23,053 bases of DNA. Source: Oscillospiraceae bacterium. GTDB taxonomy: Bacteria; Bacillota; Clostridia; Oscillospirales; Acutalibacteraceae. Positions 4,237 through 13,206 of this stretch are shown here, piece after piece. Both the position numbers and the translations under genes were made by a program. Every line of letters begins with the position of its first letter. Within the stretch, counting starts at the first letter, position 1. The stretch is taken from positions 1 to 23,053 of the forward strand of contig JAISYX010000030.1 of assembly GCA_031269595.1 (NCBI GenBank), given 5' to 3'. Below the pieces are notes generated by a model. That model saw only the letters and a program-made list of their open reading frames with translations, made no database searches and was not told where the DNA came from.

Positions 4237-4398
4237 TTGGATAGAAAAAATAGCGAAAATATTAACCATATAGAGTGCAACGTTAAAAACTGTGAATATC
4301 AGCAAGAGAGCAAGTGCTGCGCCGACGATGTTAAGGTTGGCCCCAATTTTGCCGTAACCTCTGCCGATACTGTTTGCAAAACCTTTAAAAGCAGATAA
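4237..4398 (+). CDS. DUF1540 family small Cys-rich protein, 53 aa, missing from the ORF track
   Basis: AGGAGG, 8 nt, then TTG start. Translation MDRKNSENINHIECNVKNCEYQQESKCCADDVKVGPNFAVTSADTVCKTFKSR matches the DUF1540 pattern C.V.NC.Y...C.A..V.V....TVC.TFK. Confidence 0.7.
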   Translation: MDRKNSENINHIECNVKNCEYQQESKCCADDVKVGPNFAVTSADTVCKTFKSR

Positions 4399-4423: not shown

Positions 4424-4456
4424 AAGCCCGCCAATCTAATTGACGGGCTTAGTTTT
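4424..4456 (+). terminator. Terminator hairpin AAGCCCG-n13-CGGGCTT then AGTTTTTT, probably bidirectional between DUF1540 and the LXG-like gene
   Basis: 7-bp GC stem plus T6. Confidence 0.55.
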
Positions 4457-4471: not shown

Positions 4472-5053
4472 CTAATTACTTGCCTTAGCCTGCTCTATTT
4501 TAATTAATAAGGCTTGCAGCGAGCCTATTATGGACGAAAATCTCTCGCCATTTTCTATATCAAATGAGAGAAACCTCTCTGTCAATTCCTCTGTAAGGCT
4601 CAAGCCCTCGGTTAAGGGCTGCATAAAGTCTGTGTTCTGGGGGCGTGTCATGGGAAGCAGATCTTTAATTTTGCTTAAATCCGTTTCCAGCTCTCTTTGC
4701 AGCACGTCAAAGGATTTGCGCAGCTCGTTAAACTCCTGAGAGACAGCCGTTAAAACCGTGGAATCTATGTAGGAGATGTCGCTCCCGTCCACATTTTGCA
4801 CATACTTCATCATGGTTTGCCTAAGAGCCTCCAGCAATGCGGTGGAAATTTCGGCAAGCTCACGACACACAGAACGGTGTGTTGAGGAGATATATTGCTT
4901 AAGGCTCTCGGCTCCTGCACCGGACATGTCCTGGGCAGCAATGTCCGCCCAAATGACATCCATGCGCTTAAAGCCTTCGCTTAGCTTGGCGGATTTTGGC
5001 GCAAAGCTCTCTCTGGCCTGCACCAGCTCGGAATAATCTAAAAGCTTACTCAT
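4472..5053 (-). CDS. LXG-domain-like protein, 193 aa, an N-terminal type VII effector delivery domain with no C-terminal toxin domain
   Basis: N-terminus MSKLLDYSEL, a SGAGAESLKQY block, DISYIDSTVL and KDLLPM all resemble LXG domains. GGGGAGG RBS. Preceded by two small helical genes as in the Bacillus ywqH-ywqI-ywqJ locus. Confidence 0.5.
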   Translation of the reverse strand: MSKLLDYSELVQARESFAPKSAKLSEGFKRMDVIWADIAAQDMSGAGAESLKQYISSTHRSVCRELAEISTALLEALRQTMMKYVQNVDGSDISYIDSTVLTAVSQEFNELRKSFDVLQRELETDLSKIKDLLPMTRPQNTDFMQPLTEGLSLTEELTERFLSFDIENGERFSSIIGSLQALLIKIEQAKASN

Positions 5054-5313
5054 AGACTAGCCTCCCCGCCCTGCTGTGTAAGGTCAAGAGTATCCACAGC
5101 CTTTTCTATTTTTGCAGTGTCAAGCATTACTAATTCAGAATATGCATTTACGCATTTTTGAAGCAGAGCCAGAGCCTCTGAAAAGCCTGCAAAGGTGCTA
5201 AGGGTGCTTTTGGAGACAGACAGAGTATCGTGGCTTGTCTCTCCAAGCTCTACCGCCTCGTTTTTTAGAAGAGCAAGCTGGCCTTTAATGGCCTCGCTGT
5301 TAAAGCCTACCAT
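5050..5313 (-). CDS. Small helical WXG100-like accessory protein, 87 aa (YwqI / DUF5344-like, an LXG partner)
   Basis: Size, position between the 134-aa gene and the LXG gene, and GGGGGG RBS. Start and stop overlaps with both neighbours. Confidence 0.45.
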   Translation of the reverse strand: MVGFNSEAIKGQLALLKNEAVELGETSHDTLSVSKSTLSTFAGFSEALALLQKCVNAYSELVMLDTAKIEKAVDTLDLTQQGGEASL

Positions 5314-5711
5314 GCAGCATACCCCCCTGTTTCTTTTTCAAGCATATCCAGCGAATTTCTTAATGAAGTAATTTGCTTGTGATTGCTGTAACGCTGATTT
5401 TCTAACCGTGTTATTTCTCTTTCAATAGAATCCTGTATTAAATCAAGCTTGCGAAGGTAATCGGTGCAGCCCCAAACGGTGTCGTCTACTAATCTGTAAT
5501 GAATTTTTTTGGCCTGCATACCCTTCCACTCTTTAAACAGGGATTCTTTAGCCTTTAAACGGCTAAGGCTGGTTTTAACGTTAAACTTTAAAAAGCCCAA
5601 ATCCTCGCCGGCCTCCTTAAGCCTTTGTATCCCTTGAGCTATACGTTCCTGCCGCCTTAAAAGGTCGTTTAAATCTCCGTTTGTAAGAGAAATTCGTTCC
5701 CTTATGTTCAT
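5307..5711 (-). CDS. Small helical accessory protein, 134 aa (YwqH / DUF5082-like, an LXG partner)
   Basis: AAAAGGGGGA then 9 nt then ATG at 5711. The ORF-track TTG at 5750 lies upstream of the RBS. Confidence 0.45.
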   Translation of the reverse strand: MNIRERISLTNGDLNDLLRRQERIAQGIQRLKEAGEDLGFLKFNVKTSLSRLKAKESLFKEWKGMQAKKIHYRLVDDTVWGCTDYLRKLDLIQDSIEREITRLENQRYSNHKQITSLRNSLDMLEKETGGYAAW

Positions 5712-5986
5712 ATGTAAAAATCCCCCTTTTAACATGAACAATTTGTGCAATTTTAAGCAACTTATAGCATATTAACCCATATTGCCACAAAATTTGCGAT
5801 AACTGTATTGATTATAACATATGCAACCTGAAATGTAAATAGTTTTATAATCAAAATGTTTTGGAAAAATTTGATAGTTGGATTTTTGTAAGTAGTGGTT
5901 TGTGGAGTGCTCTGTAAATCTTAAAATTTCAAATTCGCCCACAACGCTACAGTGGTACACCAAATGAATTTGAAGCCACAAAAGCT

Positions 5987-6160
5987 GCGTCATTGCGAGC
6001 ACGCAACAAAGCCGGAATAACAGTAAAGTGCGGTGTGCGAAGCAATCCAGTGGAACAAGGCCAGACGTCCCATAGTAGCACAGGGGCTTAAGTCCCACTG
6101 GATTGCTTCGCACTTGTAACCGCATGGTAAACTCAAGCTCAGCGGTGCTCGCAATGACGC
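5987..6160. repeat. Nested-palindrome repeat, family 2, copy A, about 174 bp. Outer stem GCGTCATTGCGAGCAC/GTGCTCGCAATGACGC encloses an inner stem GTGCGAAGCAATCCAGTGG/CCACTGGATTGCTTCGCAC
   Basis: Second copy at 12952-13125 in the opposite orientation. The overlapping ORF 5772..6206 is judged spurious. Confidence 0.7.
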
Positions 6161-6376
6161 ACGTCAGTGGGGCGATAGAAAAGTAACATTCCTCACGCTC
6201 TCTCACATTCCGCCCGGTCTACATGTGGACGTAAAAAGTTTTAGTTGTTACAAGGTAGTAGCAGCAAATTTTTAATCGAAATTGCGAAAATTGCTAAAAA
6301 ACTGCGAAATCAGGCAAAAAACTGCGCAACAGCGAGCTAATCTCAGCTAATCGCCGAATATGTCAACAAATCAGGG

Positions 6377-12855: not shown

Positions 12856-12951
12856 GAATTTCAGCTCCTTTGTTTGTGATTATTGATTGCTCTGTCTGTG
12901 GGGATATGCGAGAGCGTTAGGAATGTTGTGTTTCTATCGCCTCGCTGCCGT

Positions 12952-13125
12952 GCGTCATTGCGAGCACCGCTACGCTTGAGTGTATCATAGGGTTACAAGT
13001 GCGAAGCAATCCAGTGGGACTAAGCCCTTGCGGCTTCGATTGAACGTCTAGCCTTGCTCCACTGGATTGCTTCGCACACCAAACATCACTGTTGGTTTAG
13101 CTTGGTTGCGTGCTCGCAATGACGC
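12952..13125. repeat. Nested-palindrome repeat, family 2, copy B (inverted relative to copy A)
   Basis: Same outer and inner stems as 5987-6160. The spacers are reverse complements of copy A. About 80-85% identity. Confidence 0.7.
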
Positions 13126-13206
13126 AGCTTTTATGGCTTCAAAATCATTTAGTGCACCGCTGTAGCTTTGCGGGCGAATGCAATTCGCTCCTACAGTTTT
13201 TAGATG

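Follow-up and report, generated by a model that had tools for sequence, protein, structure and literature searches.

Three overlapping genes on the minus strand of the window (a complete contig of 23,053 nt from an NCBI MAG labelled 'Oscillospiraceae bacterium') form an intact locus under purifying selection, in which a YwqH-like (Lap4-type) protein and a probable Lap3-type protein are followed by a protein of 193 aa that consists of a single LXG domain. In the 23-kb contig we found neither a toxin domain or toxin remnant nor an immunity gene or any of the type VII core genes. [quoted passage not shown] NCBI already carries family labels for two of the three proteins, so the new element is the selected toxin-less state only; this state appears to be undescribed, and one pairwise sequence comparison stands behind it.

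Gene layout and family assignment

The following features make up the locus and its immediate downstream region:

5307..5711, minus strand: gene 1, YwqH-like/DUF5082 (Lap4-type) protein of 134 aa with a W62-K-G64 turn motif (MDR1563823.1)
5050..5313, minus strand: gene 2, helical protein of 87 aa, probable DUF5344/Lap3-type
4472..5053, minus strand: gene 3, a single LXG domain and nothing else, 193 aa (MDR1563821.1)
5811..5839, minus strand: sigma-70-like promoter (TTTACA, 17-nt spacer, TG-extended TATAAT)
4424..4450, no strand assigned: terminator hairpin with a 12-bp stem and 3-nt loop, common to the trio and the convergent DUF1540 gene
4237-4398, plus strand: DUF1540 gene, 53 aa, cysteine-rich, convergent on the trio, 98% conserved in the related metagenome contig L001
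4434-4150, minus strand: shadow ORF of 94 aa, hydrophobic, antisense to the DUF1540 gene

The earlier note on this DNA had described three overlapping minus-strand genes of 134, 87 and 193 aa in an order like that of ywqH-ywqI-ywqJ; coordinates and sizes are exact, and the order (YwqH-like gene, 87-aa gene, LXG gene) was confirmed. Genes 1 and 2 overlap by 7 nt and genes 2 and 3 by 4 nt (ATGA), and a strong Shine-Dalgarno sequence is located before each of the three. A 147-aa form of gene 1 extended to a TTG codon is unlikely since the ribosome-binding site AAAGGGGGA precedes the ATG. PGAP annotates all three genes as intact, and NCBI names the products of genes 1 and 3 'DUF5082 domain-containing protein' and 'LXG domain-containing protein', respectively. 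The promoter-like site lies about 100 nt upstream of gene 1, has 11 out of 12 consensus matches plus the TG extension, and is the best such site in a 2.7-kb region; it is to be read as a consensus match only since promoter-like sites are no more numerous than expected from shuffling. The terminator hairpin starts 21 nt past the LXG stop codon, and the 61-nt stretch that contains it has a predicted folding energy of -21.6 kcal/mol (z = -5.0). The hairpin is flanked by an A-tract and, on the opposite side, by a T-tract, so that the terminator is probably bidirectional; the U-tract, as read from the sequence, is weak on the strand of the trio.

Gene 3 is a member of the LXG family. It scores 53.5 bits against PF04740 (cutoff 26.5), with residues 3-186 aligned to positions 1-186 of the 202-position model so that the whole domain is covered, and it can be aligned end to end with the LXG domains of toxins of 357-653 aa. 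As a single sequence it has very low identity to Streptococcus intermedius TelA (E = 0.2), and a profile built from gene 3 and the LXG domains of its distant relatives matches the TelA LXG domain (8gmh_B) at E = 1.8e-24. The blocks MSKLLDYSEL, SGAGAESLKQY, DISYIDS and KDLLPM, to which the earlier note had drawn attention, are all present and fall on the conserved columns G45, Y54, D89, I96 and D131. At the LxG position the protein carries M43-S-G45, a hydrophobic-x-Gly motif. In the alignment with its relatives G45 is invariant while position 43 is F, I, M or L, and M-x-G recurs in the full-length LXG toxin P0007, whose gene is part of a T7SS cluster. The sole change at this motif examined by experiment, L-to-Q in TelA, abolishes export (PMC10801868). 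The AF2 monomer model of the LXG protein, of low confidence (pLDDT 59), puts the helix 1/2 turn at residues 41-44, and a Foldseek search of the PDB with this model gave nothing at E <= 0.001.

The two upstream proteins were assigned in the nomenclature of Klein et al. (2024), in which DUF5344 is Lap3 and DUF5082 is Lap4 (PMC10801868). Gene 1, located upstream of the LXG gene, belongs to the Lap4 family with 44.4 bits against PF16888 (YwqH-like; cutoff 33.7), and a profile made from it and its positional equivalents in two related loci (L083 and L084, see below) has LapA4 (8gmh_C in PDB 8GMH) as its top match at E = 1.1e-4. Gene 2 is a probable DUF5344/Lap3-type targeting factor, as judged from weaker matches: it scores 19.6 bits against PF17279 (DUF5344; E = 0.0014), under the cutoff of 27, and 14.8 bits against TIGR04197. 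Among four positional equivalents of gene 2, three have a DUF5344 match, the best at E = 2.9e-5, and the size of gene 2 and its place between the Lap4 and LXG genes fit Lap3; a search of the PDB with the gene 2 sequence gave no LapA3 match. Profile searches thus bore out the families proposed in the earlier note for genes 1 and 3 and stayed below the cutoff for gene 2. Rfam, PHROGs and PADLOC returned nothing meaningful for the trio locus.

Relatives of the trio and selection on its genes

An exhaustive HMMER search for relatives of the LXG protein covered 1.84 billion representative proteins and gave 12 hits: the closely related P0001, eight full-length LXG proteins of 357-653 aa with 21-30% identity, P0011 (243 aa), and two repeat-protein matches discarded as spurious, of which one was a cytochrome c and the other an LRR/fn3 protein. 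Word-indexed searches with the LXG protein and with the LXG profile found P0001 alone, and the same kind of search with the Lap4 protein found only the window's own NCBI entry; the trio was not found in the genome and metagenome collections scanned. P0001 has 193 aa, is 91% identical to gene 3 and comes from two metagenome contigs, L001 and L002. In these contigs the same three genes are present with identical lengths, stop codon, terminator hairpin and downstream DUF1540 gene, and the hairpin is identical in L001 despite a differing flanking spacer.

Selection was measured with Nei-Gojobori counts between the window and L001, which is one pairwise comparison of two closely related lineages. 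For the LXG gene dS is 0.34 and dN is 0.047 (dN/dS 0.14), and pN/pS is 0.165 (Fisher p = 4e-12). Divided into thirds, the gene shows pN/pS of 0.24 for aa 1-64, 0.18 for aa 65-128 and 0.09 for aa 129-193, so that the C-terminal end is the most constrained part of the protein. The dN/dS ratio is 0.30 for the 87-aa gene and 0.15 for the 134-aa gene, the latter over the 63 C-terminal codons that L001 covers; with all three genes pooled, pN/pS is 0.21 at dS ~0.3-0.4. No frameshift or stop was found in the trio between the window and the L001 lineage. The locus had been called decayed in the earlier note. This description is not supported: the genes are intact, have equal lengths in a relative at dS ~0.34 and are under purifying selection, and none of the marks of a pseudogene (disrupted frame, relaxed selection, leftover toxin DNA) was found.

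The toxin-less state was found in a single narrow lineage; apart from the frameshifted P0011, all further relatives detected are full-length toxins of at least 357 aa. P0011 was considered as a second toxin-less LXG protein and rejected, as it is a frameshifted full-length toxin instead. Its locus and that of P0007, the closest full-length relative of gene 3, are as follows:

L083, 2908-3988: P0011 locus, directly after essC; the adjacent frame encodes a transmembrane, glycine-rich segment matching the toxin part of P0007
L084, 1266-11800: type VII cluster with P0007

The frameshift in P0011 could be a sequencing error or a real pseudogene. The broken gene in L083 keeps its toxin sequence in the next frame, whereas the trio locus does not. 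The L084 cluster contains a separate DUF6382/FHA protein and a CbiA/MipZ-type ATPase, and after these YukD, an EssC of 1518 aa, a WXG100 protein, a YwqH-like protein, a 98-aa protein, the 653-aa LXG toxin P0007 and DUF4176. No EsaA, EssA or EssB hit is on record for this cluster, which may represent a clostridial T7SS variant other than T7SSb. As a separate observation, the C-terminal part of another distant LXG relative, P0009 (377 aa), matches impB/mucB/samB (Y-family polymerase) Pfam families; either LXG is fused in an unusual way in P0009, or the assembly is chimeric.

Surroundings of the trio in the contig

As the earlier note had stated, the protein stops right after the LXG domain and a terminator is next: gene 3 ends at residue 193, which is the LXG boundary, stops follow in all frames, and the hairpin with its 12-bp stem comes directly behind. 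The claim that toxin and immunity genes are absent was upheld as well. A tblastn search with the C-terminal regions of all distant LXG relatives gave no match in the window, and directly 3' of the LXG stop codon there is the terminator and then the convergent DUF1540 gene, with no immunity gene in that place. The downstream 94-aa ORF (4434-4150) was considered as a hidden membrane toxin or immunity gene and rejected as a shadow ORF of the DUF1540 gene: of nine substitutions relative to L001, eight fall on third positions of the DUF1540 frame and are synonymous there, and in the shadow frame eight of the nine are non-synonymous. Such an ORF antisense to DUF1540 could easily be miscalled as a membrane protein. 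In a six-frame search of the window with the proteins of the related T7SS cluster, the LXG gene was the sole match. No DUF4176/Ltc chaperone gene was found in the window, which fits an LXG protein without a middle domain (PMC10801868, discussion).

The rest of the contig encodes ylxM, ffh, two metallophosphoesterases, DUF1836/MerR, Bax1-I, SPFH, pyrF and LytR, and further YfbR, SDR and rnf subunits; all neighbors in the contig are housekeeping genes or unrelated to T7SS. The Ffh protein of the window has at most 77-78% identity to any homologue in 185,579 species-representative genomes, from which we concluded that the lineage is essentially unsampled; the nearest matches are an uncultured Clostridia MAG from goat omasum and Acutalibacteraceae/Ruminococcus MAGs. 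Eighty Ffh-anchored loci from related Oscillospirales have just ylxM-ffh in common with the window. Elsewhere in the contig (7097-9954, plus strand) a gene for a 228-aa membrane protein without a Pfam match is followed by the Bax1-I gene and a gene for a 457-aa SPFH/Band-7 protein. In L046, which is recorded as the MAG 'Oscillospiraceae bacterium isolate Th196P3bin149', the 228-aa protein and the SPFH protein (78% identity) have homologues that lie side by side.

A dispersed intergenic repeat of about 280 nt was also observed, with copy A at 5933-6211 (plus strand) and copy B at 12901-13179 (minus strand), the two being 85% identical. Copy A is located between the promoter of the trio and the divergent DUF1836 gene. 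The repeat is built of nested long inverted repeats, whose outer stem has 17 nt (TGCGTCATTGCGAGCAC) and whose inner stem has 22 nt (GTGCGAAGCAATCCAGTGGAAC); copies A and B have identical stems and diverge in the loops. The predicted RNA fold has an energy of -105.6 kcal/mol (z = -10.5), and the repeat has no match in Rfam or among plasmids. Nothing yet favors a structured RNA over a MITE-like DNA element, since one segment of the inner helix is broken and uncompensated in copy B. The inner-stem 19-mer is found directly beside outer-stem matches of 12-16 nt (core CGTCATTGCGAGC) in four unrelated metagenome contigs:

L085, 496-533: stem-sequence pair, outer-stem match of 15/16 nt
L086, 1484-1562: stem-sequence pair, exact outer-stem match of 12-13 nt
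L087, 1682-1762: stem-sequence pair, exact outer-stem match of 12-13 nt
L088, 22-76: stem-sequence pair, exact outer-stem match of 12-13 nt

The stem sequences seem to belong to a more widespread family of short palindromic repeats, of which the element in the window would be an expanded version.

Possible function and comparison with known systems

LXG toxins of S. intermedius need Lap3 and Lap4 partners (Klein et al., PMC10801868). In that species LXG, Lap3 and Lap4 together form an elongated helical bundle and the two Lap proteins are co-secreted, and the LXG domain with its Laps, without the toxin domain, is necessary and sufficient for T7SSb-dependent export (PMC10801868). The trio encodes just this minimal unit sufficient for export, and from this we infer that its products would most likely be exported as a cargo-less heterotrimer. 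Translational coupling of the genes would give roughly equal amounts of the LXG protein and its Lap4-type and Lap3-type partners. By analogy with TelA-LXG/LapA3/LapA4, the LXG protein and two helical partners would assemble into an elongated helical bundle that constitutes a tripartite type VII signal, and this bundle would be exported without cargo by a T7SSb or a clostridial variant encoded elsewhere. LXG proteins are proposed substrates of the T7SSf and T7SSj of Clostridia (PMC11217815), and the exporting machine may be one of these two variants. The most likely origin is a toxin-bearing LXG locus that lost its toxin and immunity genes, after which selection on the complex's own function would have kept the module. 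Candidate roles are that of a carrier for separately encoded cargo and that of a structural or regulatory substrate comparable to EsxA or PE-PPE pairs. We only tentatively suggest, and regard as rather doubtful at present, that the trio is a natural cargo-less, true type VII substrate with such a non-toxin role, i.e. a trans-carrier of LXG-less cargo or a structural or regulatory component.

Points that count against an exported complex are the lack of T7SS core genes in the contig, the methionine in place of the LxG leucine that is essential in TelA, the score of gene 2 under the Pfam cutoff, and the restriction of the toxin-less state to one lineage. Other explanations have to be weighed against an exported complex. 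Since all other detectable relatives are full-length toxins, the ancestor was almost certainly toxin-bearing, and the locus could be a truncated remnant from which the toxin and immunity genes were deleted, the leftover genes being functionless and not yet decayed. Sporadic truncations just past the LXG domain are known from individual strains (G218* in 2 out of 15 GBS strains; PMC9900821), and the trio locus stands alone amid housekeeping genes. A remnant is nevertheless quite unlikely given the low pN/pS (0.165 for LXG and 0.09 for its C-terminal third, with dN/dS of 0.30 and 0.15 for the helpers, at dS ~0.34), the reading frames without frameshifts or stops and the lengths and stop codon that are identical in the second lineage. 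Ribosome-binding sites, start/stop overlaps and the promoter-like site have all been kept, and there is no toxin leftover, unlike in the broken L083 gene. The earlier note had left the choice between a truncated remnant and a toxin-less adaptor set; selection and intact frames favor the toxin-less set and argue against the remnant.

Selection shows function, not the place of action, and in a genome without T7SS the LXG-Lap bundle could have been co-opted for an intracellular or membrane-associated role. The 23-kb contig contains no T7SS gene and the module is highly divergent (a search of 1.84 billion proteins gave 12 hits, the nearest LXG relative beyond P0001 being at most 30% identical), both of which are consistent with such a non-secreted complex. 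We consider it unlikely, however, as T7SS targeting is every experimentally known LXG-Lap role (PMC10801868, PMC9600955) and a location remote from the secretion cluster is normal for LXG loci in Bacillus subtilis (ywqHIJ and yxiBCD; PMC8321402). In addition, the closest full-length relative comes directly after essC and a WXG100 gene in L084, and the trio has kept the hydrophobic-x-G turn as well as the WxG motif in its Lap4-type protein. The head and its helpers might also be maintained as a docking module onto which orphan toxin-immunity cassettes can recombine. T7SS loci commonly contain orphan C-terminal fragments of toxins that lack LXG, and their reconstitution by recombination has been proposed (PMC13492133; PMC9900821). 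A head-only module would be the logical counterpart. Downstream of the LXG gene, however, there is no cassette, linker homology or recombination-suited repeat, but a terminator and a conserved convergent gene, and rare future recombination would not give strong purifying selection on amino acids, notably at the C-terminal end; this explanation is very unlikely.

If the exported cargo-less complex is real, it would bear on how LXG domains are viewed, which the literature treats as the N-terminal address labels of type VII toxins. Were a label-only module to occur naturally and be kept by selection, this would point to a biological function of the exported bundle itself, for example as a carrier, structural part, regulator or decoy, and LXG domains would then serve for more than the addressing of toxins. 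A structural or regulatory substrate would be a Bacillota counterpart of the bare PE-PPE pairs. With the trio one would have a native substrate, minimal and non-toxic, on which recognition by the secretion ATPase could be studied. For genome mining we advise caution: an LXG locus need not encode a toxin, and a short LXG gene should not be taken for a pseudogene by default. In the T7SS literature searched we came upon no account of a head-only (toxin-less) LXG module that is conserved, which is absence of evidence only.

Compared with S. intermedius TelA-LapA3-LapA4 (PDB 8GMH, PMC10801868), the trio has the same three protein families with the helpers directly upstream of LXG, and the crystallised, export-competent LXG fragment of TelA is about as long as the whole 193-aa protein of the window. 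TelA continues into middle and toxin domains and has an immunity gene and a DUF4176 chaperone, whereas the trio lacks all of these; the LxG leucine of TelA is replaced by methionine in the window protein. Strains of GBS subtype II with G218* have a toxin-less LXG domain like that of the window (PMC9900821). The cases in GBS, Listeria and S. suis are strain-level nonsense mutations with the toxin DNA left in place, or C-terminal fragments without the LXG head. Unlike these, the window gene is a clean head-only form, conserved between lineages, under purifying selection and with no toxin DNA. Toxins that lack LXG and are exported via other signals are also described in the literature.

The B. 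subtilis operons ywqH-ywqI-ywqJ and yxiB-yxiC-yxiD show the same order of a YwqH-like protein, a protein of about 87 aa and LXG. Their helper proteins are similar in size to those of the trio. YwqJ and YxiD, of roughly 570-600 aa, are toxins with immunity genes behind them, whereas the LXG protein of the window has 193 aa and nothing downstream. The ywqHIJ and yxiBCD loci sit far from the T7SS core cluster (PMC8321402). A more distant parallel is provided by the PE-PPE pairs, which belong to another phylum, to T7SSa and to other sequence families; the analogy to the trio is functional, not familial. Mycobacterial PE-PPE pairs, such as PE25-PPE41, frequently leave the cell as bare bundles of helices that carry no enzymatic domain. 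Klein et al. (PMC10801868) report a structural resemblance between LXG-Lap complexes and PE-PPE heterodimers.
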